Virus record (IMG/VR): IMGVR_UViG_3300030098_005439
Length of the DNA stretch: 64,000 nucleotides
Strand: one strand, 5' to 3'
DNA from: an uncultured virus (IMG/VR IMGVR_UViG_3300030098_005439)
Lineage: Duplodnaviria > Heunggongvirae > Uroviricota > Caudoviricetes
The notes beneath the pieces were generated by a model that was not told where the DNA came from, made no database searches, and worked only from the letters and a program-made list of their open reading frames with translations. Positions 616 through 55,295 of this stretch are shown piece after piece; positions within the stretch are counted from its first letter, which is position 1, and every line of letters begins with the position of its first letter. Position numbers and translations under genes: made by a program.

Positions 616-1011
616 TCACTCAGGTTCAGTACAACTATAAGACCCGAGTAGCTTATCCGTCAACTTGGACGGCTCGCATCGTTGCTTATCTGTTTCACCG
701 GTTCGAATACACAAAGCCCACATACACTGAAGCGACATGGGATCTCCACCTACTTCCGTAATACAGGGCGGTGGCATATCTGTAAGTTTGTCAGCAATAG
801 CAGACTCCCTTTTAGCCTCTTCGACCGCTACCTCTTGGACTTTAGTGACCAACGCTTCGTTGCCGTTATTCAACTCTTTGATCGCTTCTGTTTGCGCTTC
901 AATTGCCTTAGCGCCAGCGTCGGGCTTGAGGCCCCAACCAGCACCAAAGCCCACCCCCAAAGATGCAAGAACAGCAATTGTAGTCAGCGTTATTGGTTCC
1001 ATTTTTGTCAT
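616..1011 (-). CDS. Membrane-anchored coiled-coil protein with Cys-rich C-terminus (spanin-like)
   Basis: N-terminal TM (IAVLASLGVGFGAGWGL), coiled coil, 5 C-terminal Cys; lysis context. Confidence 0.5.
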   Translation of the reverse strand: MTKMEPITLTTIAVLASLGVGFGAGWGLKPDAGAKAIEAQTEAIKELNNGNEALVTKVQEVAVEEAKRESAIADKLTDMPPPCITEVGGDPMSLQCMWALCIRTGETDKQRCEPSKLTDKLLGSYSCTEPE

Positions 1012-10200: not shown

Positions 10201-13200
10201 TCTAAAACACCACTTTTACTTGTAATTACGTCTGGAATAATGCGAGCCGGAACTCCAGTTTTTTGTTGTGCTGCTTTTTGCTTTGTTAGCGCATCAGCAT
10301 CCATCCCGGTTCGCAATTTCGTAAACACATCAACAATTTGGAACAGCTTGTCTACTTTTGCCAGCGGTACAAGCGGCACGAGTAACGAAATTTGATCCTG
10401 ATAAAAATCAATAAAATACTCAGCGCCGTTTCGTTTTGCAGACTCAATCGCGTTGACGAGATCCTCATTCACCTTGCCCGTCATTCGAATGTGTTTTTCG
10501 ATCACTTCGACAAGGTCAGGGTTTGCATTTTCCCTGTTGAATCTGAGTTCTTTGCGAGAAAACTTGTCTACCAGTTTTTTGATTTCTGAGCCCAACTCTT
10601 TAGTCAACTCAGTAGATTCAAAAAGTATGCCCAACTTTCTTACGAAACCAGGGTGAACATCGCCCCTTCGAATTCGGTTTAACGGCCCCGCTTCAATATC
10701 TTGCATGACCTTGTGAACTAAGTCGTACTCAGCGACGGACATGATCCTCAAATTTGCTTCAGGATCTAACAATCCCTTCGGCAAAATATCGGATGCAGGC
10801 TGTTGGGATATTTCTTGAATGATCGTCCTCATGCCTGCAATCTGTCGATCAGATAGCGTAAAGAACTCGGTTTCACGTATTTGCTGGTCTACCAAGACTT
10901 TTGGGCCTGGAGAGTTGATGCGTTGCCGCTCATCAAATGCGGCCAAGTCATCAGGGCGAACAAGCGGTGAAAGGTTACTCCGATCTACATTTCCGTCTTG
11001 ACCCCTTTGAGCCAAGAATTTCGCTTTTGTATCTGGGAAGTCGCCTAAGCTTTCGATCAGTCGCTTTTTGACGTTCTCCAAAATCTGAACAGCCCTGGAT
11101 ACTGGAACAATGTATCGGCCTGTACCCACGGTTGTTGTCTTTGCACGCTTTAGCGTGCTGCGGAACCTGTCAGTTTTAATGTATGCAATTGTTTTGATGA
11201 GAACATCGATGGCATCATCTGTTGTGTCGGCGTAAACTCTCCGTGGAATACGCACGGTTTGACCTGTGGTGGGGTCAACATCAGCATCAACGCGAGTGAT
11301 AAACTTATCACCAAGGTATTGATGAATCACTTCTGGGTTCATTGACGGCTGTTTGGCAGATTCTTCTCGTGCAAATTTAGCAGGCTTGCTGTCGAGCACC
11401 TGCTGCCTTGCGTCTGCATCTACAAAAATTGCGTATGGTCGTTTTCTAACCACGCTTGCGGTTAGCGCATCGATGTTCCTGCGATCAGATGGCAATGTAC
11501 CAAATTCAAGATCCCAATATTGCCGAACTGACTTTGGCAGTAACCCTGGTTTATTTCTGAGTTTGCTCCAGAAGTTGTGCAAACCAATGTACAACTCATC
11601 AAACATTCTACGCAGAAATCCGTTTTTTGCATCCTTGGTGCGTCTGTACAGCCTCCAAGCTTCAGCAAACTGCTCATGACCAACATCGGTCAGGCGTTTT
11701 TTGCCCTGGTTATTGACGGTGTGATCAAACAAACCAAATAGCTTTTGATTGAAATTATCACCCATGAGCGTGGCCATGAAGTGACCGTTCTCATGCCAGA
11801 GCGCATCAACATCGCCCGCAGTAAACAAGTTGATGATTGATTGTCGGGTGTTCGAATCATATTCGAAGTAACCCAAAGGAATGTCTTTTTTACGAGCAAA
11901 TCGAATATCTGGGTCTGCCACTGTATCTTCGAGCGTCAAAACAATGCGACCACCGTCCGCATCGGTTGTGCGCGTTGTTCCCTCGGGCATGTCTCCCATA
12001 AACCGCGCTGTTGGGCCTGCCGATCGATTCCGTGTAACGTTGAGGTTGCGAATTACCTCTACAGCGCTTCCAAATTGCGTATCTACAGCATCGGAGATTT
12101 TAAATGCTTGAAACTCAATTAGGGCCATAAATCGCTGTGCATCATTCACATCGATTAGTTTGTCATTCACCAGACCTTGTACTTGTCGTTGTATTTTTCT
12201 GTACTCTGGAGATGAACGAAAAACACGAACTTCGCTGACACCCAAGTCGTTGATTACTTCTTTGGAAAGCTTGCGAATCGACTGAATATCACCTGATGAT
12301 AGTACGTCAGCAGCAATATATTTGTCTGGGTCACGGTCAGCTAACAGTAAAACGCGTCTTAGTATTTCTCGTTCAGCTACTGTTAAATCATTTGTAAGAA
12401 TCTTACCTTTGTTTTTTCGTTGTCGTAATCCAGCTTGTATCAATGAGTTTATTTTTACAAGAGAATCTGACGATTTGGTTTCAACAACACCATCAAACAA
12501 CTTTTGTTTTGCAAGCTGATATCGAATGCTTGGAGATCCTTGACCTTTTAAAATTTGAGTGACTGCGCCAGGAGTATTCGCTGCCGTTCTGAAACCCATG
12601 CCACCAGCTTTAAATAGACGCTTCTCCAAGTTGAGAAACATGTCTAAAAACATACCTAAATTTTGTAGCAGGTTGTACTCAATGTCATCTGGCTGATAGC
12701 CCAACGCGGTTGCGACCTCCGCGTATCCAACCTGAAATCCACCGAGCGCCGACATCATTCTCGCGTCAAATCTAGTAATCAAATCATCGTCTGGATCACG
12801 AATACCCAAGCGAAGCATTTTGTCTAAACCAGCCGGTGTTGGCAGATATATGCCGTTTGGTAATCCAAAATTTTTTAACAACGAAGTAAGCGTATCGTCT
12901 ATTCCGACAAGATCAGTAATCCAGTTATCCGCCAAACCACCCTCAACCTCCGCTGCTGCAGTGGTTACCGCACCGGCCCAATTCAACACCTCGCCAATCG
13001 TAGATCGCTTGAAAAACGTTCCGAACTTCGGATCATCGACCTTTTCCATCAAAACGTCGAACGCTGCACGAGTTGTTCTTCGAGCACCAATTTCACCAGT
13101 TTCTTCTTCTTGGAACTTCAATAGCGATAAGCCCCACCCATCCAACTCTTTTTGTGAAGGTATGGTTGACTCCAAAATCTCTTCAAAAAGATACTGTGTT

Positions 13201-14912
13201 GCAAATGTGCGGAATGGAATGGCATTTAGAAGGCTTTGAACTTTATCGTCCTCAACGCCCTGATGAACACTTTGAATTGCAGCGATCAATACAGGATCAA
13301 TATCCATCTTCAATATCGGATGATCTTGTGGTACCAAAACAGCAACTTGCTTGAATAAATTTAGATCAGGCTGCTCTTTCATCAGCGACGGGTGTAAGTC
13401 GTTGTATGAGAGTTGTAGAAAAGACTCTTGTATTCTTTCATCTTTTTCTTCGTCAGAAATACGACCATACTTGAATGCCTCGTATACAACCAACAAGCTA
13501 TCGTCAGCAGGAGATGGTTTTAAATTACGAGACTTTACGTCCAAGTCATATTTACTTTGAACCATCATGTCCTGACGGACACGTGATCGAGCCTCTTGAT
13601 ATTCAGGGTCATTTAATATTTGCGCTCGAATGTCTTTCAAGTCGAGCAGAAACTGATCCTGCATTGGAGACTTTTCAAACAGAGCATTCAATGTAGCAAA
13701 AGGATGCTTGGGCACCATACCGGGAATTTTTGGTAGTTCGAATGTTTCGGGCTTAAAATCAATGTCTTCACTCGACTGAGTTTTCAACATCTCTTCATGC
13801 GCTTCAAGAGACTCTCTTGTTTTTCGTTGTAAGTCTTCGAAATCTACGATGCCGTGTCTATCCAAAAGCTTAACCGCATCTTTTACGCCAATAACGTCAG
13901 CAGTTTCAACAATATTTGTGACCATTGCATCACGAAGCTGATCGGACAAAATTGTATAGAAGTCACCGAAATCGTCGCCTAATCCAAAATTGACCCAACC
14001 CCTTTTTGCTAGATCAAGCAAATGGTCTGTTTTGCTATATTCGCCGGGAACCTCTGCGAGCCCACCAACACCGAGCGCCACCATTCCGCCTGCGCCTGTC
14101 ATGCTGATTCCGCCCAATAGTGCTCCCACAATACCGCCACCAAGGGCGATTACTGGTCCGCCTGCAGCGGTAGCAGCGGCACCTTTGACAAAACCACCCA
14201 CAACACCACCGGCACCCGAAGCGATCGCAATACCTTTTAGGCGGTCATTTGTTACCTTGACACCAAGCAACTCCTTATCTTGGGCTTCAGTAATAATATT
14301 ACCTTTATCGTCGGTGATCCCCATTGCTGCAGTGTCTTTGACCGGAATGTTCAACGACTGAGGTATTGGTTCAGCCAAAACACTATAGGCGCGGCTGTAA
14401 AGGCTTTTACCCTGACTTTTGCGGGCCTCTGCAGCGGCAGCTTGGTAGGTAGGTATTGTACCAAAACGTGGGTGAACACGAGAAAAAGCAGAGACATAGC
14501 TACTGCCAATGTATTTTGAAAGCAATCCTTCATCCGGCAGATCACCAACTACAACACCTCTTTCACCAAGCGTGTCGTTTACTCTTTTCTCAAGTGCCTC
14601 TTTGTCTAAAGGGTTCGACTCAAACCACTCTTCAACCGCATCAGCACCCCTCATTTTTACCTCTACAGGTATGTTGAAGTCTTTGTTGATGTAGTCGTTT
14701 CTGAGTTGTATTCTGTATTCATTAAATACAGCGTTCTTTTCGTCTAATAACTCAAGTGGCGGCTCGACTCGTTGTTGGAAACGCTCTACAGCCTCATCGT
14801 CTGCAATTTCACCTTCATCGATTGAATCCTCTTCATCAGAGTCAGATTCTAAGTTCTCTTCAAGGTTTTTAAGATCAACGTCTTCAAGGTCTTTTTCATC
14901 TTGAATTGCCAC
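7206..14912 (-). CDS. Giant internal virion/ejection protein with a zincin-like HExxH motif
   Basis: 2568 aa; two Gly-rich hydrophobic hairpins; ALWHENGH (about 11781-11804) followed by HEQFAE; position matches podovirus ejection proteins. Confidence 0.65.
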   Translation of the reverse strand: MAIQDEKDLEDVDLKNLEENLESDSDEEDSIDEGEIADDEAVERFQQRVEPPLELLDEKNAVFNEYRIQLRNDYINKDFNIPVEVKMRGADAVEEWFESNPLDKEALEKRVNDTLGERGVVVGDLPDEGLLSKYIGSSYVSAFSRVHPRFGTIPTYQAAAAEARKSQGKSLYSRAYSVLAEPIPQSLNIPVKDTAAMGITDDKGNIITEAQDKELLGVKVTNDRLKGIAIASGAGGVVGGFVKGAAATAAGGPVIALGGGIVGALLGGISMTGAGGMVALGVGGLAEVPGEYSKTDHLLDLAKRGWVNFGLGDDFGDFYTILSDQLRDAMVTNIVETADVIGVKDAVKLLDRHGIVDFEDLQRKTRESLEAHEEMLKTQSSEDIDFKPETFELPKIPGMVPKHPFATLNALFEKSPMQDQFLLDLKDIRAQILNDPEYQEARSRVRQDMMVQSKYDLDVKSRNLKPSPADDSLLVVYEAFKYGRISDEEKDERIQESFLQLSYNDLHPSLMKEQPDLNLFKQVAVLVPQDHPILKMDIDPVLIAAIQSVHQGVEDDKVQSLLNAIPFRTFATQYLFEEILESTIPSQKELDGWGLSLLKFQEEETGEIGARRTTRAAFDVLMEKVDDPKFGTFFKRSTIGEVLNWAGAVTTAAAEVEGGLADNWITDLVGIDDTLTSLLKNFGLPNGIYLPTPAGLDKMLRLGIRDPDDDLITRFDARMMSALGGFQVGYAEVATALGYQPDDIEYNLLQNLGMFLDMFLNLEKRLFKAGGMGFRTAANTPGAVTQILKGQGSPSIRYQLAKQKLFDGVVETKSSDSLVKINSLIQAGLRQRKNKGKILTNDLTVAEREILRRVLLLADRDPDKYIAADVLSSGDIQSIRKLSKEVINDLGVSEVRVFRSSPEYRKIQRQVQGLVNDKLIDVNDAQRFMALIEFQAFKISDAVDTQFGSAVEVIRNLNVTRNRSAGPTARFMGDMPEGTTRTTDADGGRIVLTLEDTVADPDIRFARKKDIPLGYFEYDSNTRQSIINLFTAGDVDALWHENGHFMATLMGDNFNQKLFGLFDHTVNNQGKKRLTDVGHEQFAEAWRLYRRTKDAKNGFLRRMFDELYIGLHNFWSKLRNKPGLLPKSVRQYWDLEFGTLPSDRRNIDALTASVVRKRPYAIFVDADARQQVLDSKPAKFAREESAKQPSMNPEVIHQYLGDKFITRVDADVDPTTGQTVRIPRRVYADTTDDAIDVLIKTIAYIKTDRFRSTLKRAKTTTVGTGRYIVPVSRAVQILENVKKRLIESLGDFPDTKAKFLAQRGQDGNVDRSNLSPLVRPDDLAAFDERQRINSPGPKVLVDQQIRETEFFTLSDRQIAGMRTIIQEISQQPASDILPKGLLDPEANLRIMSVAEYDLVHKVMQDIEAGPLNRIRRGDVHPGFVRKLGILFESTELTKELGSEIKKLVDKFSRKELRFNRENANPDLVEVIEKHIRMTGKVNEDLVNAIESAKRNGAEYFIDFYQDQISLLVPLVPLAKVDKLFQIVDVFTKLRTGMDADALTKQKAAQQKTGVPARIIPDVITSKSGVLDIDYILNNLNDIQDILDGYHGMTRLERESLIALRTLKQKGVKSAGITDQQRIIAADAIQVLHNGLLEKYSFVFETAMDHFKIAMGVEGQKVNWNFSNQDILKIYKSYYQGDLIQMYQVGATKSLVPLSPKAAKKLLGKTSKTDADTIALLTNVLVFGKISELRRGLAKELAEAGYNTNRRALFEQISKRADLGEVAGLDRQKYIERIAFYIDQELAFQDKVIIQRGTAGQKAGLLQAPAKAPEDLYGISEALPSQKNHPDSKVFGELEKAAKDEASRILDQMGIKRQLGTVSVLKLGDETFLLPESLIQGLEETMADIYKEPSFRLERNFGKNGTVEYALTGDQPEISVTIAKEMKDAARIYAQNFPALPKNFYKGLLIGSGGVPMVPYFMGVYLGTVSQVQLGQGLTAAGADLVRFPGVMTDAIGSYNNTKRINFVSGVLARTFGDGTHKPDTAPYIFKDGRVLTADGMANALIEEGVKGSFVSTLNNTNIHSRILNAFTQANPWVGGSAIGGTIGGMIGLLGGGPVGAVAGAAGGAGLSAVTLGMILRPDGFFARSSRFFGEVATAIDSYFRIRIMIREMENGADIKQAAKRTREIALDYSDLSDWEKNYISEVFAFYTYFKQATKLVAKSIVENPDRVLTQLKIARASQLKVTELEDPERVLSPWDRTRTFLPFKIGDHAIRLPYLITADVFALISDIIGAFSALPFTPNIVGEEQAQKSLLGLLSRANPYFLEFLYKPTTGLDPARGFALERATNQVPSFIVQLDHDLFGGVLHDKFGIVHLPESELKFVFDDKTGRKVNVRNIEMPGRGIYISTNPGLSNFVLEFMQTVGTGRMLDVIDAVDRSNIGLTEAMLKAADAYYQADKERPLLARVPGLVQLGVVKPTRKFTYDVSMKPGEPPRPVTMARPTDTFDATVAPGVKGYLDTATAHRAMREDFSYQGTDGTNYKLRYKDFYPLYLLKLIGLSPVHIDLENEANTSFKIKQHLRELKTSEN

Positions 14913-38852: not shown

Positions 38853-41800
38853 CTAAACTAACTCTACGTTACCTAACAACTCTTTATATAACAAGTATGA
38901 TATCAAGCCTGTTTCTTTTAGAGCCTCAAGATTGTAATAATCTTTTGCCAGTATACGCTTTTGATCATTATTAAGCTGCACTGTCTGTACAGGATGCTCA
39001 AAAAACTTAGCTTTTTGATACAAATAACGATTCAAATCTCCAGATTTACCAAACATATCTAACATTGGACCACCGTTTCCAATGGTTTCCTTCAGTCTCT
39101 TACGTTGTTTGTTTTCCTGAGAAGCGCGTAAATCAGCGTCCAAAAGCATCGGATCGCCCGAATATCCCGTGTTTACAAACAAACGAACGTCATCATAGCC
39201 CTGAATGCCCTTGGGGTCAGTGTCATAATACGTGTCCGAGCCCATCAGATACCGATCATACTCAGACTCATCGAGTTGCCTACCCGCTTCTGAAAATTTA
39301 TCTGCTGAGTCATCATACCATTCAGCCAATAGCTTACCACGCTTACCGATCTTGTCCTCTTCGTTAAGGCTTGCATACTCAGCTTCAATCAGGCCCATTT
39401 GTGTATAAAGGTCCTGTGCTTCATTGCTCAGTCCAATCATCTTCTCCACAAGTGCAGCAGTCTCTGAGAAGTCGATTGCTTGGCTGTATCCGCCCTCGTA
39501 AGACACGGGCTCGTACTCTGGGGGCTCTGAGAGTGGGTTACCCTGCTCTTCTTGTCGCTGTGACCGTACAGCGGCAGCAGCAGGGACTGCAGCGCCCACT
39601 CCGATGCCCTTGAGTATGTTTCCGCTTGGGTCAAACGTTCCTACGTTGCCGGTAGCTGACTTGATTTGCTCGGGATTAAACGCCATATAGTGGTAGGTGC
39701 CTGGAGTTACGTCGGCCATCCCTGGAATTCTGCCCCCTGCAAAACCTTGTCTTGGACCAAAGAAGTGGTGTGCATCTGCGATAATTCCATCGAATCCCAT
39801 ATTTTCGAATACCTGACGAATAAACTCTGTGTTTTCGAGACCACCAGTGTCTGATTGAAAGTAGTATTCACCACCTTTTATTTCTTTGTAAATGTCCAGC
39901 GCGTCTATCTCTCCATCATCAGAGTTTTCTACAATAAAACTTTTTAATTTTTGCGCATTAAAAAGGCCCGGCGATCCCTGCAACTTAGTGCGATTATCGA
40001 AATCATACGCAACATCATCAATGGCCTCAAGCAAGTCGATTACTGAGCCGCTTTCATCAACGATGTCACCGGCCTCGTCGTACTCAAACTCCAGATTAAA
40101 CGTCGTCCTGCCCTTAGTGCCGGATGGGTCCAAGTAGACGGGGTTCTCGATATTTACATACGTCTTCATGACGCTAAAGTTTTCGTCACCAAGAACGATT
40201 TGTCGGGCAATTTGTTCGATCAGGTCGGGCTCAAATTCGTCTTTGAGTTTCTCTACATTTCCGGTCTTAATCGCCTCAAGCAATTCAGTATCCGTCGACT
40301 CAGTTCGGTCCATATATCGCTGGGCCGCGTCCAAGATGTCGTCGTCATCAAAATCGTCAAGATCTTGAATGCGATCAAACTCTCGTTCCACCCTGTTTTT
40401 GATGTCAGGGCCTTCTGCGCGAGCATAGTTGAGGTTTACATCGTCAACATTGTCGCTGAAGTAGATGGCCGAGCCAAACGCGCCTTCAGATGAACCTATA
40501 CGAAACTCATTAAAGTCGCCCGATGTTCCATGAAATACGGGCAACACTTCGCCATCTTCATCGACTACCTTGGAGTTACCAAACTTTCTCTTAAAGTATG
40601 GAGACTCTGTACCCATTTCGCGCCACAAACGAGCAGCCTCAACAGCCTCATCTTCAGTCTTGGCACCGGCTGTGGCTACGTCTGTGGCGGCGGGGGGCTT
40701 GGCTTTGGTTGATTTAACTGCTTCCTTCGAAGCGTCTGCTTGCTCTGCTGCTTTTCTACCGGCCATCAGGTCACGAACTAAATCGTCTAGTTCTTTCTTT
40801 TGTTTGTACTCAGCGGAGAAGTCAGGCAACTCTGTTTTGACTGCCTTGCCGGGTGGAGTCTCCCCACCGGGAAACCGAGCAAACTCTGGCTCAACCCATG
40901 ACATGCGGGCTGTGAATCGTTCTTCGCCTTCATCAATGTACTTTTGAAGCTTCGCTAAAGAATCGCGAACGTCAGTGTATCGCTGCTCACCAAGCGCGAC
41001 AGCCGCGTCATTCGCAAGCCTTTGCACCTCATTGTAAACAGGAACCTTTCGGTGCTCATCGGCGTACTTGGCCAGCTTCTCATCAAACTTTTTGACCCAC
41101 TCATCGCGAGTCATAGATGGGTAGCCGCCCTCCATCATCATAGAATATCTTTCGTAACCCTTATCCAAAAGCTTCTTGCGATAACTTTTGTCAGTCAAAA
41201 CATCTTGCAAAGGCGGTGTCTCGAAGCCCATAAGCAAACTGCCATGAGTCTTACCAACTTTTTCGGCTACTGGCCCGTAGGCACGATGACCCAACCGCGC
41301 CGTGAGATCCCCGATATGTTCAGCTAAATAACCAGCCGGACCCTCACCTATATTGTGAACCCTAAACCTCTCCATAGCGCTCTCTGGAGCGCCACGCTGA
41401 ATCCGGTTCATTTCAGAAAAAGCTGCCTCAATCTCGTCAGGTGTCTCGGGCAGCTTCGCCGGGGCTGCGAAGGTCATTTGTATCGGCTTGACTGTGGCGA
41501 CATCTGTGGCAGCGGGGGGCATGGCTGCGTCAGCACGATATGTCTTACCAACAGGAAGGTAGTTTGGATCATAGTCGTCGCTATCTGGAACGTGCCACGC
41601 TGCATCTGGAGTGACTGCTTTACCATCCGTAGCTTTCTTGTCGGGCAATAGCTTGACATTCGACGTGGGATCGACCAAGCCCTGCATCATTTCGGGCGTG
41701 ATGTCTCTGCCTCTATCGATCGCCCCACTACCAAATACGTGAACAGGAACCGGAACGTCGGGCTGAATAGAATTAATCGCAGCCATACGGCCACGACCCT

Positions 41801-44800
41801 CATGCTGAACCACCTGAAAGCTGCCAGCATCGTCTCCATCCTTGACCAACTTTACGTTTAAGAAGGGTGGGCCGATGGGTTTACCTTCTTCAATCGCCTC
41901 AGTGACCGCCTTTACCGTATCGGCAGCGCTTTCAGACGAACGGACAGGGTTGAGGCCGAGAAAATCTTGTGGCTTCATCCACACAACAAAGCCTTTGTAT
42001 GCAACGTTTTTGCTGTTTGGAACGGCGCCCATTCCATCTTTGGAGTCAAATACGACCTTACCGACCGTCTGCTGGCCCTCATAAGCTGAAGTTTCTGTTG
42101 GGACCTTTAGATCGGCAACACGAGCAGCCTTGGCACCCTTATACAGGGCCATACCACCAAGCCCAATCGCTCCCAATGCAGCAGCCGCTGACAACTCTTC
42201 CTCTTCTGCTGCGGCGGCTCCTACGGCGATTCCAGGCAATGCAACGCTGTACAGCTTTTGTGGCTTGATGACCCTGTCTCTAACTTTGTCGGTGAGTTCA
42301 AAGAAGGGGAACAATTTTTGAGACTCATAAGGATCTCCGTCAGGGTCCAAATCGATAAACGTATTGGAGCGCTTAGATTTTGTTCTTTTCTGAGCAATAC
42401 TTGGAATCAGGGTGTCATAGAAGTATTGGTTGCCCTTAAATACTTTTTCAGCTTGCTCGGCGCCTTCCGCAAGGTCTCCACCTCGTTGTTTCAAGTTTTC
42501 AAGACGCTGCAGAAACGCCCCTTCGCTACCAATTAAATCTATGGCTTCATCGCGAGGCAGTGTCACAAGGGGCGTAATTACGTCTGCACGGCTAAAGACC
42601 ACACCGTCGTAGCCACCGTCTGCAGCCTCTCGGAAGATGCGGTTAATCGCAAGTGTAAGCCATTCTTTGGTGTCTTTTAGGGGAGCGTCTGGTACTGGGT
42701 TTCCAAAAAAGGGACCAGTTGGGGTTATCATCTCCGACTGATCGATTAATTTAACCCCTTCCCTTTGGGGGTCATTTTTTGAAATAAACGCCTCTGCCTC
42801 ATCTTTACTGTCAAATGACGCGATCTCGTCACCGCTGTCTTTTTTTAGAACCTTAAACCTTTTTTCCTGTTTTCTATACCCCTGCTTCCGACCCGCCTGA
42901 TGCCAATCAGACTGGATCTCTTCTACAAACAGAACCTTACGGCCCCGGTCATCGATACGGTCCTTGGTGCGAATGTGAACCAAAACGTTGGGGATGTCGC
43001 TGTGGTGAGATTTGGTGAACTTTTCATAACCCCGTATTCCGAAAAGCTCATAAGCATCAGTTTCAGTAATCAGATCGATCGCAAATTGCTTGGCTTCTTC
43101 TGGTGTTCCAAACACTGCACGCGGACCACCAATGCCAGAACCCTCATGAAAAACTTTGTACTGACCGCGAAGGTTTTCATTTTTAGATACGTCTGCCATG
43201 TCCAACACTTCAAAACTTTCAGGCAAATCCGTAAGCTTCTTTTGTGGAACCGTCAGTAGAATCTCTTGGTAGTTGTCGCCCGCAGGAGCCGTGTAATTTT
43301 CAAATCTTGGGGAAAGGTCTTTTCGGCCTACCTCAAAGGACGCGCGCGCGTCCTTGAACTCTTTTTGGGACCGAATATATTCTTGGTACTTTGGCAACGC
43401 CTGAAACTGGCGCAATGCGACCAACCGGGTCTCGGCCTCGGGCATCTCGTTCAAAATACGGGCGATGGTGCTCAGGTTTTCGCTTTGCGCCACATCGTTT
43501 ATTATCGAGTCGTGTTCCTCTTCTGTTCTTCTACGACGCGATCTCATTTCGTTCCCTCTGCGACGTGTAAACTCCTTATACTCAGGATCAGCCCGCTTCG
43601 CGTTGATCACATTACGAGCATTCGTGATCAGTGCAGCATCCTCGGGTGTCCAATCTGATACTGAAACATTGTGATTCAGATCAATCACTCGATTCACAAC
43701 ATCTTGAACGTCTGGTGGTACATTCTCAAAACGCTCGATCCTATCGATTGCGCCAACATAGCTTACATACAGCGAATTGAAGTGGGTCGAGTTATCCGAA
43801 AACCTGTGCATTTGATCGGTAACGTCTTCGCCAGGAGCAAGTATTCTCGCTACAGCCTTCGAGTCGTCATACAAATCATTAAAAGCCTCAGTTGCCTTAG
43901 TGTTGAGATTGTCTAGCCGTTTTGCAACATCTTTTGGAATTTTTTGTGACTCATTACTGAGCCTAACCTCGTCGATCTGGACCTTGTTGTCATCCAGATG
44001 TTTGATCAACTCATCCTTGGTGATGCTCTTCTTGCCCGCTGCCTTTGCTTGCTCCACAAACTCAGCGACCTTGGTGTCAGCAATCTCAGACTTCGTCGCA
44101 CCACCGCTTCTCAACGTTGAAATAACGGCATCCACGCCCGTCTTGTTTTGAAGCTTTTCAACAGCAGCCTTTTCTAAAGTAGACTCAAATACCGGGTCTT
44201 TTGCTGCAATCGCCTCTTCTGCCTTCGACAGACTGGCTGCATCGACCTTCATTGCCGCTTTCAAGCGAGCACCGCTCAATAAATTACCAACCAACGGTGC
44301 AGCACCCAACGCAGTAGCTGCAAGCTGAATACCACCAGCAACACCCGATATACCAGCAGCAGTCAGATGCGCTGCCCTCTGTTCAGGATCTCGCACCGCC
44401 AATCGACCAGACTGAACGGCAGAAGTCACATCAGAAGTTCCTGTAATGTCCACAAGGCTAGAAACATCAGCAACGTTACGAATAGTCTCAGGATCACCCG
44501 CCATAACGTCTTCATAAACTTCGCCTGCAAACTCTTTGTACACCTCACCGCGAGCCTTCGGATCTCGAAGAAATCGCTGCTCTTCTTGCGAGGCCGCTAA
44601 ACTCAAAGCCTTCATTTGTTCGAGAAACTGCCCCTCCCAAGGCTCGGGCTTCCGCGTCAAAAATGATTCCGCCTCTTTGCGCTCACGCTCGTCCTCACGC
44701 GCATCAATTGCGGCAAACCATCGATCCGACTCGTCCTGCTCCATGCCAGCAGGCACCGTAAACCCACGATACTCAGGACGTACCGACTCTTCACGAATCT

Positions 44801-44924
44801 CATTGTATCGATCCGAAACGGAAGAATCATATTGTCCAGGTTCAACCGGCACTTTTAGAGGCTGTCCGACTTCCTTGCGAAAGCCAGCCATGCCGCGCAT
44901 CAATACGTCATCAGATGACGCCAT
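38853..44924 (-). CDS. Large polyvalent protein (EEIQSDWHQ domain, ParB-like domain, ART-PolyVal ADP-ribosyltransferase-like domain)
   Basis: VLFVEEIQSDWHQ (about 42900); VVQHEGRGR (about 41800); FGNSKVVDE.G..L.VFHGT, IYFSD, Y.NIENP, GFDGI, AF.PEQIKSATGN.GTFD (about 40600-39630). Confidence 0.75.
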   Translation of the reverse strand: MASSDDVLMRGMAGFRKEVGQPLKVPVEPGQYDSSVSDRYNEIREESVRPEYRGFTVPAGMEQDESDRWFAAIDAREDERERKEAESFLTRKPEPWEGQFLEQMKALSLAASQEEQRFLRDPKARGEVYKEFAGEVYEDVMAGDPETIRNVADVSSLVDITGTSDVTSAVQSGRLAVRDPEQRAAHLTAAGISGVAGGIQLAATALGAAPLVGNLLSGARLKAAMKVDAASLSKAEEAIAAKDPVFESTLEKAAVEKLQNKTGVDAVISTLRSGGATKSEIADTKVAEFVEQAKAAGKKSITKDELIKHLDDNKVQIDEVRLSNESQKIPKDVAKRLDNLNTKATEAFNDLYDDSKAVARILAPGEDVTDQMHRFSDNSTHFNSLYVSYVGAIDRIERFENVPPDVQDVVNRVIDLNHNVSVSDWTPEDAALITNARNVINAKRADPEYKEFTRRRGNEMRSRRRRTEEEHDSIINDVAQSENLSTIARILNEMPEAETRLVALRQFQALPKYQEYIRSQKEFKDARASFEVGRKDLSPRFENYTAPAGDNYQEILLTVPQKKLTDLPESFEVLDMADVSKNENLRGQYKVFHEGSGIGGPRAVFGTPEEAKQFAIDLITETDAYELFGIRGYEKFTKSHHSDIPNVLVHIRTKDRIDDRGRKVLFVEEIQSDWHQAGRKQGYRKQEKRFKVLKKDSGDEIASFDSKDEAEAFISKNDPQREGVKLIDQSEMITPTGPFFGNPVPDAPLKDTKEWLTLAINRIFREAADGGYDGVVFSRADVITPLVTLPRDEAIDLIGSEGAFLQRLENLKQRGGDLAEGAEQAEKVFKGNQYFYDTLIPSIAQKRTKSKRSNTFIDLDPDGDPYESQKLFPFFELTDKVRDRVIKPQKLYSVALPGIAVGAAAAEEEELSAAAALGAIGLGGMALYKGAKAARVADLKVPTETSAYEGQQTVGKVVFDSKDGMGAVPNSKNVAYKGFVVWMKPQDFLGLNPVRSSESAADTVKAVTEAIEEGKPIGPPFLNVKLVKDGDDAGSFQVVQHEGRGRMAAINSIQPDVPVPVHVFGSGAIDRGRDITPEMMQGLVDPTSNVKLLPDKKATDGKAVTPDAAWHVPDSDDYDPNYLPVGKTYRADAAMPPAATDVATVKPIQMTFAAPAKLPETPDEIEAAFSEMNRIQRGAPESAMERFRVHNIGEGPAGYLAEHIGDLTARLGHRAYGPVAEKVGKTHGSLLMGFETPPLQDVLTDKSYRKKLLDKGYERYSMMMEGGYPSMTRDEWVKKFDEKLAKYADEHRKVPVYNEVQRLANDAAVALGEQRYTDVRDSLAKLQKYIDEGEERFTARMSWVEPEFARFPGGETPPGKAVKTELPDFSAEYKQKKELDDLVRDLMAGRKAAEQADASKEAVKSTKAKPPAATDVATAGAKTEDEAVEAARLWREMGTESPYFKRKFGNSKVVDEDGEVLPVFHGTSGDFNEFRIGSSEGAFGSAIYFSDNVDDVNLNYARAEGPDIKNRVEREFDRIQDLDDFDDDDILDAAQRYMDRTESTDTELLEAIKTGNVEKLKDEFEPDLIEQIARQIVLGDENFSVMKTYVNIENPVYLDPSGTKGRTTFNLEFEYDEAGDIVDESGSVIDLLEAIDDVAYDFDNRTKLQGSPGLFNAQKLKSFIVENSDDGEIDALDIYKEIKGGEYYFQSDTGGLENTEFIRQVFENMGFDGIIADAHHFFGPRQGFAGGRIPGMADVTPGTYHYMAFNPEQIKSATGNVGTFDPSGNILKGIGVGAAVPAAAAVRSQRQEEQGNPLSEPPEYEPVSYEGGYSQAIDFSETAALVEKMIGLSNEAQDLYTQMGLIEAEYASLNEEDKIGKRGKLLAEWYDDSADKFSEAGRQLDESEYDRYLMGSDTYYDTDPKGIQGYDDVRLFVNTGYSGDPMLLDADLRASQENKQRKRLKETIGNGGPMLDMFGKSGDLNRYLYQKAKFFEHPVQTVQLNNDQKRILAKDYYNLEALKETGLISYLLYKELLGNVELV

Positions 44925-46704: not shown

Positions 46705-47663
46705 TAGTTCCACTTCGCCATATTCTTGTTCTTGAACGTAGAGAAATGAAACGGATCGTCTAACTCCGACCACTCTTCCCAATCTGCACACAGAAACAAG
46801 TCATCTATCTCATCGACCGTCACACGGACCCAACGAACCTGATCCTTGGACGCTACAAACGACAACGGCCTTGGTATGGATTCAGGATCTTCAAGATACT
46901 GTATACGGCAACGCTTCCAAAACTCCTGAGTGTTTGGATGAGTCCTGCGAGTATGAAGCCTTAAATATGTACCCAACTCAGGCGTTGGAACCTTTTGTAT
47001 CGCAGCATGGTGCTTTCTGATGGTTTTCTTGAAGTTGTGCCATTTGCCTTTGCCCACCACAGGCCCATGCTTGAAAATCCAGAAGTGCAGAAACTTAAAC
47101 GTTGACCACGCCCATCTTGGCTTATCTGAAGGTGTATTCTTGTACTGCTTGTACGGATCTGCAGTAATGCGCTCTTGGTCGCGATGGTTGTCCAGGTAAA
47201 CCGCATATGCGTACCTAAACAGCGTTCTTGATGTGCCTTTTGACCCACGCAACACGGCAAGTCTGCCATCTGGATCAGATACGGCGATCTGGTTGGCATC
47301 CTTCGTTATGGACCACTTACCTGTCTCAAACGATTGGCTTCTTGCCTCTTCAGCCAACTCCCAATCGATATCACCCGACTGATAGCCGGTGTTGTAGTAA
47401 GCGGTCTCTACAGGACGCAAAATATCCAAAAACCTTTCTGACAGGCCGTCATATTTGACCACTACGTCATTTGGCTTCAAATGGCCCTGCGACTTTTCCG
47501 GTATCACCGTCAGTCGAACAAACTTTACCTTGGCCTCGTCAGTAGGTACCGGCAACGCCTCTAAGTACTCGTCTATTTCAGACTCACTGGTAACAGGAAC
47601 GCCAAGCACACCCTCAATACCAACAGCCGGAAACCGACGAGCCAAACATGCATAATCATTCAT
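46704..47663 (-). CDS. Hypothetical protein
   Basis: ~320-aa ORF with GGAG RBS. Confidence 0.7.
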   Translation of the reverse strand: MNDYACLARRFPAVGIEGVLGVPVTSESEIDEYLEALPVPTDEAKVKFVRLTVIPEKSQGHLKPNDVVVKYDGLSERFLDILRPVETAYYNTGYQSGDIDWELAEEARSQSFETGKWSITKDANQIAVSDPDGRLAVLRGSKGTSRTLFRYAYAVYLDNHRDQERITADPYKQYKNTPSDKPRWAWSTFKFLHFWIFKHGPVVGKGKWHNFKKTIRKHHAAIQKVPTPELGTYLRLHTRRTHPNTQEFWKRCRIQYLEDPESIPRPLSFVASKDQVRWVRVTVDEIDDLFLCADWEEWSELDDPFHFSTFKNKNMAKWN

Positions 47664-47906
47664 AATCACTCCAGGCTACGACTCTATATTTGTCAAAAGC
47701 GCCCGTCAACTCTTTGTTTCTAACAAAATCCCCAGGGGGGCGCTCCGCGCCCCCCGCGCAAACGCCGCAAGCACCACCACCACCACGGGGGGGGGCAGAG
47801 CCTCGCACGCGCGCACGATTCCGCGCACGGTTCCACCTATGGCACCCGGTCAGGGCCCATAAATCCCCGAAAAATCCAGGGGGAAGGCGGCATATCGCGC
47901 AGTCGG

Positions 47907-48284
47907 TCACACGGTCCACCCCCACGCGCGCACGGTAGACAACGCGCCCCGCATAGCACCACGGGCAACCCCGGCCACGCTACGCGCTACCCCCTGAACA
48001 CCACGGGCCACGCTACGCGCAACGCGCGCCACGCTACGCGATACACGCGCAACAGCAGAGCCCACGGGGGGGGTCACAACCTCGGCCACAACTGGAACCT
48101 CCACCACGGGGGCAACCTCGGCCACTCCATCAAGGGGGGCGGCTATGGTCACCACGCGGGGGGCTCCAGGGATGCGAAGTTGTGGAACCTTCGACCACGC
48201 AACGAACCGACCCGTAACAGAGCACCGCGCACGTTGGCGGGGCGCGTCTGCCGAGAGGTTCGAGAATGCGAGTGCGAAAGTCAT
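47907..48284 (-). CDS. Leaderless hypothetical protein with VARSVAR repeats
   Basis: ATG lies 7 nt after a -10 box; RCSVTGRFV motif; amphipathic basic repeat C-terminus. Confidence 0.5.
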   Translation of the reverse strand: MTFALAFSNLSADAPRQRARCSVTGRFVAWSKVPQLRIPGAPRVVTIAAPLDGVAEVAPVVEVPVVAEVVTPPVGSAVARVSRSVARVARSVARGVQGVARSVAGVARGAMRGALSTVRAWGWTV

Positions 48285-48290
48285 AAACAC

Positions 48291-48319
48291 ACCTTACCCC
48301 ACCCTGACAAACCTGACAA
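48291..48319 (-). promoter_or_regulatory. Leftward promoter
   Basis: TTGTCA-N17-TAAGGT. Confidence 0.6.
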
Positions 48320-48348
48320 GGGGGGTAACGTAGGAAAAACAAAGAAAG

Positions 48349-48445
48349 TTTTTTCTTCAATGATTTCAAGCACTTACGAGGTATGGTGCATTTTTTTTGC
48401 TAAAAAAGTGGTTTTTTTTCTTCAATGATTTCAAGCACTTACGAG
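48349..48445. repeat. Perfect 32-bp direct repeat x2 with IHF-like site
   Basis: TTTTTTCTTCAATGATTTCAAGCACTTACGAG at 48349-48380 and 48414-48445; TTTCAAGCACTTA is one mismatch from WATCAANNNNTTR. Confidence 0.85.
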
Positions 48446-48467
48446 AAACATTAGAGACGTACAGCGT

Positions 48468-48496
48468 TTGCCATACCTGTCAGAGTGGGCCATATT
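48468..48496 (+). promoter_or_regulatory. Rightward promoter for the candidate ncRNA
   Basis: TTGCCA-N17-CATATT; spacer nearly identical to the leftward promoter. Confidence 0.55.
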
Positions 48497-48502
48497 GTTT
48501 GT

Positions 48503-49436
48503 GTGGCGGGGGAAACACCCCGCAGAAAAAATCACTACCGACCGGGGCGAACACTGCCAACGCCCAAGAACTAAAGCGGTCCCTTGAATCTTTGACATCA
48601 CGAATAAGAATAGACGGGCAACCTGGAAACAGATTGACCCTGGTACACGGCGCGGCAAAGACGAACCCCGCGCAATCGGCTAACGCTGGAGTGCAGCAAG
48701 GCTAAGTAAGAGAGACGACCCCCCGAGGGGGGCGCCATCTGAAAAGCAACCGAGCCCTATGGAATTCGCCACGGCGGGCAGGGTGAGGCGAGCAGGACAG
48801 GCCAACCGATTGGACCCCGTGTAAGTTACCCCCCGGCACGTTTCATGGACGGCGGGGGAGTGCCAAGACCCCAACACCTGCGGGCGAGCACCACTAAGGC
48901 TTTGAGCAACGTCACGGCCCCGTCTATTGTAAGTACCCGGTAATCGGAGCAGCCTAACGGCGTGCCGGGTAAGTGAGTCTGCAAATAGAGCAGGCGTCCG
49001 ATGCGGCGAGCAGTAGCGAGGCCGTGGGAATAGTACCCCCGAAGACTATTGCAAGGTATCCCCCCACCTTACACGGGGGGGCTGTGAGGCCGTGGCCCAC
49101 AGTGAACACCGCCCCGGCGAGCGTATCGCCGCCCCTTTTTTAGCAGTACCCACGGCGCATGTTCGCCGGCCCTGCAACGGTCGCGGCCCCGTTATCAGTC
49201 GCTCACCCCCGTGACCAGCGCCGTGCATATCGGGGGGAAGCCGAGAGGCAAAGCGGTGCACCTGCGGAAGACAACCCCCGGCCACGCAGCGGGTGCAAAC
49301 GATAGGCGGGCGTCCGGTCTATCGTTTGCAAGACATAATGACAGGGCGCCCACTACATAGCCGTCGCCGGGGCTCCCCCTATGATTTAGGGAGGGGTTGA
49401 GCCCTGGCGGACGGTGGACCTTTCGCGGTTCGCTGT
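48503..49436 (+). ncRNA. Candidate large structured ncRNA (~930 nt), family unassigned; 3' end approximate
   Basis: No credible ORF; more than 12 helices, including long-range 48609-18/48919-28 and 48815-25/49068-78; GNRA loops. Confidence 0.65.
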
Positions 49437-49744
49437 CCTGCGATTAGTCGCGGTTGACATGCCAACTACCGCAAACGTCGGATATCCCGGTTTTAACGGG
49501 GCTTTTCGATGTATTTCGTACAGATAGGGCGGGGGTCTTACCCCTGATTTTTACGCCTTGCCCCGGTGTTGGTACGGTTGCCATGTCAACACCAGGACCG
49601 AATAACCCGCTTGAAAGGCTGCATATCACGTAGCCGGTGGGTGTTTTCATTCGGGGGTTTGAGAGGTGGCGCGGACCCATCCCGCATAAAATCCCCGCCA
49701 TATTCGCGTGTATTGGTACGAATGACCGAACCTTACCCCCCTTG

Positions 49745-50026
49745 TACCCTAACCTCTGCCCCAACCTATCGCAGAGGTTAGGGCACCGAATAGCCCGCCT
49801 TTAAGGTACGATATCGGTCACTGCCCTAACCTACCCTAACCTCTGACCCAACCTTTTGAACCTCGCGGATTTTCTCGACTGTCTCGACCTTCTCTCTCTA
49901 CTATATTGTATTACCTATATATATCTTTTATCTAATAGGTTAGGGTAGGTTAGGGCAATAGAGAATAACCGAGGTTAAACCGGGCTTTTCAATCTGCCCC
50001 AACGTAGGGGCACCACTGCCCCAACG
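49745..50026. other. Putative replication origin (iterons around an AT-rich core)
   Basis: About 9 CCC(T/C)AAC(C)T-type repeats in both orientations; perfect 21-bp inverted repeat 49822-42/49937-57 flanking a TA-rich core. Confidence 0.6.
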
Positions 50027-50035
50027 GGTAGGCAC

Positions 50036-50064
50036 TTGACACCCTTTACCCCTTCCCTTAGACT
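50036..50064 (+). promoter_or_regulatory. Early promoter
   Basis: TTGACA-N17-TAGACT upstream of the first early gene. Confidence 0.75.
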
Positions 50065-50100
50065 GACATACCAGCCAAACCCTAACAGACTGGAGGCATC

Positions 50101-50430
50101 ATGCCTGTACTCAAACGATACAAGCCGCACGGCGGCTACCCCTTGGCGCCTGATGGCGGATGGGCGACTGTCCGCAAACTGACCAACAGAGAGGCGGTCC
50201 TGATTCTGAATGCCTCTGAGACTATGGCCGAGCGTGGCCCCGATGGACTGCGCGGCACCATCGCGGGCAAGTGCTTCGTGGCTTTGAATCGATTCGGTCG
50301 CCCTAAAGCTGGCAAGTGGAACCAAGCCTACCCCGCCGGTACTCGTGCCATCTACCACCACGGTGGTGGTGGTGGTGTCTGGTCCGGCTTCTATATCATC
50401 GAAAAACTTAAAACCCTGGAGCAATCATGA
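50101..50430 (+). CDS. Early hypothetical protein
   Basis: CTGGAGG RBS; ends LEQS at a junction motif. Confidence 0.7.
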   Translation: MPVLKRYKPHGGYPLAPDGGWATVRKLTNREAVLILNASETMAERGPDGLRGTIAGKCFVALNRFGRPKAGKWNQAYPAGTRAIYHHGGGGGVWSGFYIIEKLKTLEQS

Positions 50431-54260: not shown

Positions 54261-54281
54261 ACTTTACCTATGCTGACACAC

Positions 54282-54311
54282 TTGACAGCCAATACCAAAC
54301 AGGTGTATAAC
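54282..54311 (+). promoter_or_regulatory. Promoter of ardC
   Basis: TTGACA-N18-TATAAC. Confidence 0.6.
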
Positions 54312-54341
54312 CCTAATGAGCAAACAAACCGGAGATTCAAC

Positions 54342-55295
54342 ATGGCTAAAAAACCAACATTCAACACGCACCAAGTCATCACCGATATCATCCTCGCTTC
54401 GCTTGAAAAGGGCGTACAGCCCTGGCGCAAAGGCTGGACCGCATTGGGTGGCGCCTTGAGCCGTCCCGTCAGTGGAGGTACAGGCAACCCATACAACGGT
54501 ATCAACGTGATTCTGCTGTGGGCGGCACAGTCCGAGCGTGGCTACCACTCCGATACTTGGCACACGTACAAGGGTGCCCAAGGCAAGGGCGGTCAGGTAC
54601 GAAAGGGTGAGAAGGGTACACGAATCGTCAAATGGTTGTTCCTGCCAATCAAAGAGAAGGGACAGGTGAAGCTTGATGCCAACGGTGAGCCCGTGACCTT
54701 CGCAAAGATGAGGCTGTATACAGTCTTCAACGCTTGCCAGATTGATTGGGCAGAGGGTAGCGAGCATGCCCCTGGTCCTGCTCCAACAGTGGAGGAACAC
54801 GATGGTTCTCAGGCCGGTGACGAGTACAAGGATGCCAAAGTCATTCTGGATTCATGGGCCGAAGAGGTCACTATCATGCATGGCGGCGACTCGGCATTCT
54901 ATCGACCATCAGATGACTTCATTCAACTGCCCACCTTTGAACAGTTTGACAGTGAAGCCGAATACTTCTCGACTGCCTTTCATGAGGCGATTCACAGCAC
55001 AGGTCACAGTACACGTCTGAACCGCTTCAAAAAGGAACGCAAGGGTAGCTACAAGCAAGCCTACGCATTCGAGGAACTTGTAGCAGAGTTGGGTGCGGCA
55101 TTCTTGTGTGCTGATGCTGGTATCAACCAGCCAGAAGAACCACGCGAGGACCACGCGCAGTACTTGGCCCACTGGCTCGAAGTACTCAAGGGTGACCCGA
55201 AGGCCATCGTGTCTGCGGCATCCAAGGCAGAGAAGGCAGCGAAGCTTGTAATGACAAAGGCAAGCGAGGCCGGTCAACAGCAGGCAGCAAAGTAA
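54342..55295 (+). CDS. ardC: ArdC-family antirestriction / ssDNA-binding protein with zincin domain
   Basis: ITD.I...LE.G..PW, YNGIN..LLW, W.TYK...GG.VRKGEKG, VFN..Q, HEAIHSTGH, YAFEELVAELGAAFLC. Confidence 0.92.
   Translation: MAKKPTFNTHQVITDIILASLEKGVQPWRKGWTALGGALSRPVSGGTGNPYNGINVILLWAAQSERGYHSDTWHTYKGAQGKGGQVRKGEKGTRIVKWLFLPIKEKGQVKLDANGEPVTFAKMRLYTVFNACQIDWAEGSEHAPGPAPTVEEHDGSQAGDEYKDAKVILDSWAEEVTIMHGGDSAFYRPSDDFIQLPTFEQFDSEAEYFSTAFHEAIHSTGHSTRLNRFKKERKGSYKQAYAFEELVAELGAAFLCADAGINQPEEPREDHAQYLAHWLEVLKGDPKAIVSAASKAEKAAKLVMTKASEAGQQQAAK

Follow-up and report, generated by a model that had tools for sequence, protein, structure and literature searches.

What is encoded by the GC-rich stretch that lies between two divergent gene blocks of an uncultured marine phage? 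We have studied this question in 64,000 nucleotides (nt) of DNA, referred to below as the window, from the uncultured virus IMGVR_UViG_3300030098_005439, which represent most of a phage genome of ~73 kb. One block of genes runs leftward from position 48290 down to the window start, and a second runs rightward from 50101. The 1.8 kb between them has no credible gene, and its GC-rich part, with a GC fraction of 0.58-0.65 over 48500-49400 compared with 0.44-0.46 immediately upstream, is the structured element examined here. An original prediction had described 48503-49436 as a single, ornate and pseudoknotted noncoding RNA (ncRNA) of ~930 nt with its own promoter. The sequence is as was described, GC rich and without a credible open reading frame (ORF). 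On the evidence of its relatives, we think it rather probable that the element encodes a large ncRNA with a global fold, of a new family that is carried by one lineage of uncultured marine phages.

The element is conserved, noncoding and globally paired, and many of its helices, including one that spans 300 nt, are kept by compensatory changes. Comparison with dinucleotide shuffles of the region, which had been proposed as a check, gave a divided answer. Complementary 10-mer pairs are in clear excess (7, against 0.67 ± 1.07 in the shuffles, with 1 of 300 shuffles reaching 7), while individual helices of 7-8 nt are expected by chance, the shuffles yielding 40 and 10.6 such pairs. The folding energy is only modestly better than that of shuffled sequences, with z = -2.57 for the plus strand and z = -2.24 for the minus strand (20 shuffles each). 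Because the margin is small and much the same on both strands, the case must rest on the relatives.

We found 15 sequences related to the window in viral and metagenome contigs. Eleven are clear homologues (clades A, B and E), and four more (clades C and D) have in common their position and two anchor motifs. The clades are as follows.

Clade A: the window, L043, G001, L032, L078, L047, L066 and L297
Clade E: L298
Clade B: L007, L009 and L144
Clade C (tentative): L290 and L292
Clade D (tentative): L291 and L294

Among the viral records compared, the closest contig to the window is G001, of 73 kb; L043 is 99% identical to the window, and L047 is cut at its 5′ end. These sequences came from exact-pattern scans of viral and metagenome contigs, and from a scan with the neighboring protein of 321 amino acids (aa). 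The metagenome pattern scan returned at least 120 stretches, with nine homologues among the matches listed and the rest chance GC-rich matches; the viral scans gave three contigs and then a fourth, four homologues among 32 pattern matches. Alignment of the family of the 321-aa neighbor led to 10 IMG/VR loci, all of which carry the element or its anchor motifs upstream. Pattern scans of genome contigs gave no match to the terminator, and 121 stretches matching a degenerate 5′ motif, none of them homologous by blastn; no prophage copy or host clue emerged from these scans. A scan with an 18-mer from the downstream module 2 (see below) gave two new matches, both by chance.

When clades A and B are compared by blastn only the ends match, and the middle 500 nt can no longer be aligned. 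The element keeps to a single syntenic place, yet its sequence has diverged too far for blastn to recognize. For clades C and D, nhmmer profiles of clades A and B detected none of the four loci at E ≤ 0.01. In all six newly fetched loci, however, the syntenic spot has the anchor TCTTT.A.ATC followed 478-614 nt downstream by GCCGTGGC, and a 17-nt 5′ motif, read by eye, is common to L298 and clade C. Given the synteny, the two anchor motifs and covariation of their own, clades C and D are probably members of the family despite the null result with the profiles, although this is unproven.

Consensus folds were calculated with RNAalifold, and we counted the base pairs that had changed on both sides and were still paired.

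Six clade A sequences: 161 predicted pairs, 19 both-side changes still paired
Two clade B sequences: 135 predicted pairs, 14 both-side changes still paired
Three clade B sequences: 137 predicted pairs, 20 both-side changes still paired
Nine clade A and E sequences: 148 predicted pairs, 34 both-side changes still paired
Four clade C and D sequences: 114 predicted pairs, 31 both-side changes still paired

In a control where every 3′ partner was slid by 1-3 columns, the number of such pairs fell to 0-1 for the two clade B sequences, 0-4 for the six of clade A and 6-11 for the nine of clades A and E. The fraction of cells paired was 93-100% in the real structures and 34-47% in the slid controls; for the nine clade A and E sequences the values were 93.0% and 42-47%. 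The columns of the alignments were also shuffled and refolded, a procedure that does not preserve dinucleotides. For the six clade A sequences this gave an energy of -120.4 ± 6.7 and 6.6 ± 2.1 both-side pairs (maximum 11 in 60 shuffles), against -193.6 and 19 for the real alignment. For the two clade B sequences the corresponding values were -130.2 ± 7.5 and 5.7 ± 2.0 (maximum 10 in 100 shuffles), against -170.4 and 14. Compensatory pairs in the homologues, which had been named as a decisive observation, therefore exceed both the slid and the column-shuffled controls.

The structure that emerges may be described by the following features.

48503-49141, plus strand: core structured RNA (module 1), 639 nt in the window and 563-721 nt in clear relatives
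48506-48523, plus strand: 5′ hairpin GCGGGG-GAAACA-CCCCGC (stem 48506-11/48518-23)
48589-48608, plus strand: single-stranded motif TCTTTGACATC-ACGAATAAGA, the most conserved of its kind
48609-48928, plus strand: central domain, closed by the long-range helix H1 (48609-18 with 48919-28), span 300 nt
48651-48672, plus strand: hairpin P4 with conserved ACGAA loop, in 10 of 16 sequences with four different complementary stems
48673-48812, plus strand: helix H3 (CAATCGG/CCGATTG) and its interior, span 130 nt
48755-48783, plus strand: P6 motif, an outer helix of 4 base pairs (bp), a GGAA internal loop and a 5-bp hairpin with CACG loop
48934-48971, plus strand: variable peripheral hairpin, in place of which relatives have unrelated hairpins
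49060-49102, plus strand: two 3′ hairpins, CCCCCC/GGGGGG and an invariant GCCGTGGC hairpin with CGUG loop
49115-49141, plus strand: terminator-like hairpin CGGCGA/TCGCCG, then CCCC and a T-run (49136-49141)

The core is conserved and carries peripheral hairpins that vary. The first half of the TCTTTGACATC-ACGAATAAGA motif is an anchor common to all clades, and occurs in all six newly fetched loci. The long-range helices had been proposed from perfect inverted repeats of 10, 11, 7 and 8 nt, all of which can be read in the window. H1, the 10-nt repeat (AATAGACGGG/CCCGTCTATT), is well supported, with 97.8% of cells paired in nine sequences and compensatory change at two positions, G-C becoming A-U in three sequences and A-U becoming G-C in one. 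In clade B its equivalent, which follows a conserved GAATAAGA motif, is a different helix of 12 pairs, 6 of which have both sides changed when L007 is compared with L009. H3 also holds up: it is invariant in seven of the nine clade A and E sequences (L066 pairs only after realignment by eye), and in clade B a different complementary 7-mer, CACCGAT/ATCGGTG, occupies its place.

The P6 motif was sought without an alignment, as a 4-bp helix, GGAA, a 5-bp stem, CACG, the stem, one nucleotide and the helix. This fixed geometry is found in 11 of 16 sequences, that is, in all of clades A and B. There are five complementary outer helices (CCCT/AGGG, ATCC/GGAT, CCTT/AAGG, GGGA/TCCC and GAGC/GCTC) and six stem variants, all complementary apart from a single A·C in L032. 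Clades whose sequences can no longer be aligned have their core elements in the same order and with the same geometry. Towards the 3′ end, the CTGTG/CACAG stem of the 3′ hairpin becomes ACGCG/CGCGT in L066, and the hairpin with the CGTG loop is present in 13 of 16 sequences by the register used. The terminator-like hairpin is invariant in 9 of 9 sequences, with a compensatory CGGTGA/TCACCG in L144 and L298. At the other end, all five of the close clade A sequences retain the 5′ hairpin, L078 with a G·U pair, and L066 and L009 have a shortened form.

Other parts of the predicted fold fared less well. The 11-nt repeat of 48815-25 with 49068-78 would cross H1 and form a pseudoknot. The repeat is present, and it is invariant in six of nine sequences; L297 has 9 of 11 pairs, one of them compensatory, L066 has 7 of 11, and L298 is misaligned at this place. 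The pseudoknot is nevertheless unproven, since a nested helix, 48644-50 with 48817-23, covaries at least as much, with three positions changed on both sides, and the 3′ G-run also pairs locally (49060-65 with 49075-80). The 8-nt helix 49021-28/49149-56 (GCCGTGGG/CCCACGGC) is not supported: only the window and L043 have it intact, six others show a mismatch at its center, and in G001 the partner strand is missing. Likewise, the hairpin AATAGT/ACTATT is not kept in relatives.

Could the region instead encode protein? Stop-free stretches of 106-181 codons run along the minus strand in 10 of 10 sequences examined, reaching 120-181 codons in most relatives, and a small ORF of 48 codons lies at 49159-49305. 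Yet the lengths of the antisense frames are those expected from composition: shuffles matched for composition attain them in 39, 101 and 168 of 1000 trials, and a strong A>T skew of the plus strand gives rise to them. Comparison of the window with L043, its 99% twin, shows the antisense frame to be interrupted in the window, and the conserved motif falls in different reading frames in the two clades. The synonymous share of codon differences is at most 35% in every frame, gap runs are mostly not multiples of three (39 of 51 runs for clade A, all 15 for clade B), and tblastx between clades gives only short, weak matches. Where the 48-aa ORF would start, L066 has ATA, and L066, L007 and L009 each have an indel of 1 nt that changes its reading frame. 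The region 48503-49141 is noncoding, and we regard a protein product from any of these frames as scarcely credible. The antisense frames over it, of up to 181 codons in relatives, are a trap for gene callers.

If the element is an RNA gene, which strand is transcribed, and where would the transcript begin and end? The following features lie immediately upstream.

48468-48496, plus strand: sigma-70-like promoter TTGCCA-17-CATATT, with a predicted start near 48503
48453-48466: motif AGAGACGTACAGCG, immediately 5′ of the -35, conserved in clade alignments
48349-48380 and 48414-48445, plus strand: a perfect direct repeat of 32 nt in two copies, located 5′ of the RNA promoter in the space that separates the divergent units

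The promoter and the GCGGGG/CCCCGC hairpin following it are both present as had been claimed, and the -35 is conserved in position across clade A, B and E sequences. We infer the plus strand because the promoter, the hairpin with its T-run, the GNRA loops and the G·U pairs all belong to it. The GNRA loops read properly on the plus strand alone (GAAA in the core, and GAGA, GUGA and GGAA in module 2), and G·U pairs arise through single changes in well-defined local hairpins. For clade B the reverse-complement alignment folds worse, with z = -2.8 compared with -5.4. The motif AGAGACGTACAGCG is inverted in clade D, where L291 and L294 carry its reverse complement GCTGTACGTCTC; from this occurrence in either orientation it is probably a protein-binding site, which suggests a regulator that acts independently of orientation. 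The 32-nt direct repeat has two matches in the window, both here, and one copy is kept in clades B and C. Its core, ATTTCAAGCACTTA, resembles an IHF site.

Comparison with known RNA families gave no assignment. A search of Rfam 15 at gathering level, the check that had been suggested, found no match in the 64-kb window; at E values up to 10 there were five matches in 48000-50300, none to GOLLD, ROOL, OLE, raiA or HEARO, and at E values up to 1 the six relatives gave only one subthreshold small RNA match. Group I and II introns, RNase P RNA, transfer-messenger RNA (tmRNA) and 6S RNA were considered and rejected, with no covariance-model match and no tmRNA called by ARAGORN, and there would be no gene interrupted by an intron since both flanks of the element are noncoding. 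When 48300-49900 was compared by blastn with 50,697 phage records, none matched, and no description of this RNA was found in the literature searched. Being conserved, noncoding, structured and without an Rfam match, the element appears to be a new large RNA family. This part of the original prediction stands, as does the proximity to an origin, in that a cluster of iterons and AT-rich sequence resembling one lies downstream; the size, the pseudoknot and the 49021/49149 helix are not supported in the form proposed.

The nearest systems in character are GOLLD (RF01998) and ROOL (RF03087). Like them, the new RNA is several hundred nt long, combines a conserved multihelix core with GNRA loops and peripheral hairpins that vary, and is phage-borne with a function likewise unassigned. 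However, their covariance models do not match it, and the family is so far confined to one marine phage lineage. GOLLD and ROOL are often found near transfer RNA (tRNA) genes; the new RNA has none nearby, ARAGORN having called no tRNA or tmRNA gene in the window or in nine related loci. A further structured phage RNA is the pRNA of phi29, a trans-acting oligomeric scaffold of 174 nt that a short-tailed phage transcribes from an early promoter. The predicted RNA is much longer (~640 nt) and matches neither its sequence nor its Rfam model, and it belongs to an unrelated type of phage, with a terminase at most 28% identical to that of any cultured phage. The primer RNA II of ColE1 is closer in size, a structured RNA of ~550-640 nt that has its own promoter and runs into the origin, with the antisense RNA I overlapping its 5′ end. 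The predicted transcript is similarly structured, of ~640 nt, with its own promoter and aimed at an origin-like region, in a phage with no recognized polymerase. It differs in its conserved terminator-like hairpin and in the ~600 nt of variable modules before the iterons, and the iterons imply a protein initiator.

With regard to assembly and expression, ROOL and GOLLD are described as forming RNA-only multimers (10.1101/2024.12.08.627333), on which the scaffold mechanism proposed below is modeled, and the Cellulophaga crAss-like phage phi14:2 provides a case of long ncRNAs that are expressed. These are transcribed rightward at the g004-g005 and g005-g006 junctions, and are reported to be present from the earliest time point at levels above most genes, with a function that "remains to be determined" (10.1101/2020.03.07.982082). 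Both phages are marine, and in both a long intergenic region stands at the head of early genes, a comparison of position only. They differ in that the window phage is of ~73 kb with no DFDxD polymerase motif found in its 2568-aa protein, and in the lack of a match among the 50,697 phage records, the presence of phi14:2 among these being unchecked. The two cases are complementary: here it is the structure that is supported, and there the expression, with no structure described in the parts of that report on which we draw. The motifs in a catalogue of candidate structured RNAs from IMG/VR, published in 2023, average 67 nt (PMC10690425), and four of our contig numbers are absent from the six of its supplementary files that were searched, three further files being outside the search.

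Beyond the core, the region continues with a series of smaller elements.

49142-49260, plus strand: module 2, conserved hairpins including GCC-GNRA-GGC, kept in most relatives
49261-49350, plus strand: lineage-specific insert with a 12-bp hairpin at 49294-49330; relatives have another insert or none
49351-49440, plus strand: module 3, which forms a long imperfect hairpin (49360-49415), shows compensatory changes and recurs in L294 and L298
49485-49510 and 49530-49555, plus strand: further hairpin and T-run sites, between module 3 and the iterons, conserved in G001
49747-49955: six CCCTAACCT iterons, three per strand, around an AT-rich stretch at ~49893-49936
50036-50064, plus strand: promoter-like TTGACA-17-TAGACT before the first rightward ORF (50101), conserved in G001

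Two of the local hairpins that had been picked out are borne out here. The GCC-GAGA-GGC hairpin is kept in module 2, with the loop variants GAGA, GTGA and GGAA all conforming to GNRA and AAGA in L032 failing to fit, and the stem GCGCCG/CGGCGC becomes GCGGCG/CGCCGC in L007. The long stem of 49361-49414 is the module 3 hairpin, which has compensatory changes in relatives. Nevertheless, the idea of a single RNA of ~930 nt has to be revised. The conserved global fold covers ~640 nt and ends at 49141, and the last 300 nt consist of modules that may be present, absent or swapped. Module 2 is absent in G001 and L144. Compared with G001, L078, L047, L032 and L066, the content of 49142-49350 is a mosaic, in that relatives close in module 1 differ in their inserts while distant ones share module 2, which suggests recombination between lineages within this control region. 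In L144 module 2 is replaced by sequence containing a perfect hairpin like the T-arm of a tRNA (GGGGTTCGAATCCCC, ~940-975, minus strand). ARAGORN called no tRNA at this hairpin, which could be the remnant of an attachment site or a tRNA-like element. Further downstream, the six iterons compare with 0.17 matches expected in the 64-kb window, and all fall within 49747-49955; together with the AT-rich stretch they look like a replication origin or a multisite operator.

How might such an RNA act? In the mechanism that we favor, host RNA polymerase would transcribe the plus strand from the conserved TTGCCA-17-CATATT promoter, and the transcript would start near 48503 with a protective 5′ hairpin. 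Most transcripts would end at the conserved hairpin and T-run of 49115-49141, with partial read-through into the swappable hairpin modules downstream, and the RNA would be made alongside the rightward early genes. We put at about even the chance that the product is a discrete, stable RNA that acts early in infection and in trans, as a folded scaffold or decoy. Such an RNA would bind a host or phage factor, or self-assemble like ROOL and GOLLD, and would be neither a leader nor a primer. Action in trans is favored because the 3′ hairpin and T-run appear to be selected and the early operon has its own promoter, and because a conserved core with a variable periphery typifies RNAs of defined shape. 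A more ambitious version seems doubtful to us, although it deserves statement: a new ornate RNA class with a compact tertiary fold, as an RNA-only particle, a ribozyme or the core of a ribonucleoprotein, that would be the first product of a lineage without a recognizable polymerase or initiator and would directly seize a host process. If this were true, the RNA might recruit host replication or transcription machinery to the iteron origin, or disarm a defense that senses RNA.

A number of observations weigh against the RNA gene as we have drawn it. The consensus structures and the pair counts share the same alignments, and it is because the structures derive from the alignments being counted that the column-shuffle-and-refold null was added. 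When the fold of a single sequence was transferred to a relative, 10 of 14 and 15 of 23 both-side changes were kept, a weak signal beside slid controls that kept 0-7 of 3-17 each, or about one-third when pooled. For clade A the reverse-complement alignment folds equally well (z of about -13 compared with -11), and the helices common to the predictions for both strands contain eight G·U and eight A·C cells. The strand and both ends of the transcript are all inferred, and the listed sequencing runs that contain the stretch are of DNA, from marine metagenomes, with no RNA runs among them. The CCCC between the terminator stem and the T-run is atypical of an intrinsic terminator, clades C and D are without the hairpin and T-run, and the presence of a GNRA hairpin in module 2 suggests that transcription runs past 49141.

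Some of these points would suit an RNA that acts in cis within the control region, a reading that we consider possible if rather unlikely. It could be a leader of the early operon, working by attenuation or antitermination, or an origin transcript that activates or primes replication 600-800 nt downstream, for which there are precedents in priming by ColE1 RNA II and the transcriptional activation of the lambda origin. Transcription is directed at the six iterons and the AT-rich stretch, the order of RNA, module 3 and iterons is kept in L294, and three terminator-like hairpins stand in series (49115, 49485 and 49530). Moreover, module 2 resembles transcribed RNA, the T-run is missing from clades C and D, and host enzymes may be used since no phage polymerase was recognized. 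Against this, the hairpin and T-run are conserved elsewhere and the stem covaries, the iterons lie beyond ~600 nt of variable modules and a further two terminator-like hairpins, a separate and well-conserved promoter, TTGACA-17-TAGACT, serves the early operon, and a globally folded core with long-range helices would seem to exceed the needs of known leaders and primers.

The same mosaic character raises the question of whether there is a single RNA at all. A chain of independent hairpin modules (terminators, processing sites of the RNase III type or protein-binding palindromes, for example), some of them mobile, might have accumulated in a region prone to recombination; 49142-49440 is a mosaic, module 2 is missing in G001 and L144, inserts vary, and even in module 1 the peripheral hairpins are swapped. 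Independent hairpins would not, however, explain why H1 and H3, spanning 300 and 130 nt, covary along with their clade B equivalents, nor why the order and geometry of the core are identical across clades that do not align, and we judge this account very improbable. Slightly lower still we place an element acting purely as DNA, a packaging, recombination or replication site that uses extruded or single-stranded hairpins. It would accord with clade A folding energies that do not tell the strand, with the adjoining origin-like repeats and with a transcript that has so far only been deduced. Yet pairing across 130-300 nt would be implausible in duplex DNA, the GNRA loops and G·U pairs are strand specific, and promoter and terminator are conserved on one strand.

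To our knowledge, there are only a handful of well-supported bacterial and phage RNA classes of several hundred nt (OLE, GOLLD, ROOL and raiA), most of them without a function. A new class would thus be of interest, here with strong comparative support from few sequences, a gene-like layout of promoter, 5′ hairpin and terminator, and a fixed place in the early and origin control region of an abundant uncultured lineage from ocean metagenomes of the Tara type. The RNA should be a tractable target for folding in vitro, probing and cryo-electron microscopy, and would provide a second marine phage case beside phi14:2 in which to ask what large early ncRNAs do.

The leftward block includes genes for a RusA-like resolvase, SSB, terminase, the major head protein, an SU10-type adaptor and two giant proteins, and the rightward block consists of small genes without assigned function plus an ArdC-like protein. 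The features concerned are as follows.

7206-14912 and 38853-44924, minus strand (a pair of spans for the two giant proteins): one protein of 2568 aa, with no family and no PDB match, and one of 2023 aa, with an ART-PolyVal domain
54270-55295: ArdC/MPTase protein (ArdC-like anti-restriction), in the rightward block

The phage has no cultured relative, as its terminase and virion protein are each at most 28% identical to those of GenBank phages and a tblastn search of these phages with the 321-aa neighbor gave no match. Nor does this neighbor give a functional hint, since none of its 29 homologous clusters is named or has a Pfam domain. No phage DNA or RNA polymerase was recognized among 51 window proteins compared with PHROGs (22 of them also with Pfam), and so the phage may rely on host enzymes. 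The idea of a virion RNA polymerase was set aside, as the 2568-aa and 2023-aa proteins have no PDB sequence match and no convincing DFDxD motif was seen. These two proteins and the ArdC/MPTase protein resemble a set of injected, anti-defense "polyvalent" proteins. Beside the intergenic region, 47656-48290 is 70% GC and contains repeats of CCACGCTACGCG. Within it, ORF 47907-48290 on the minus strand has an N-terminal 50 aa that is kept as protein (82% with L007, compared with 71% for the DNA), beyond which it is of low complexity and variable.

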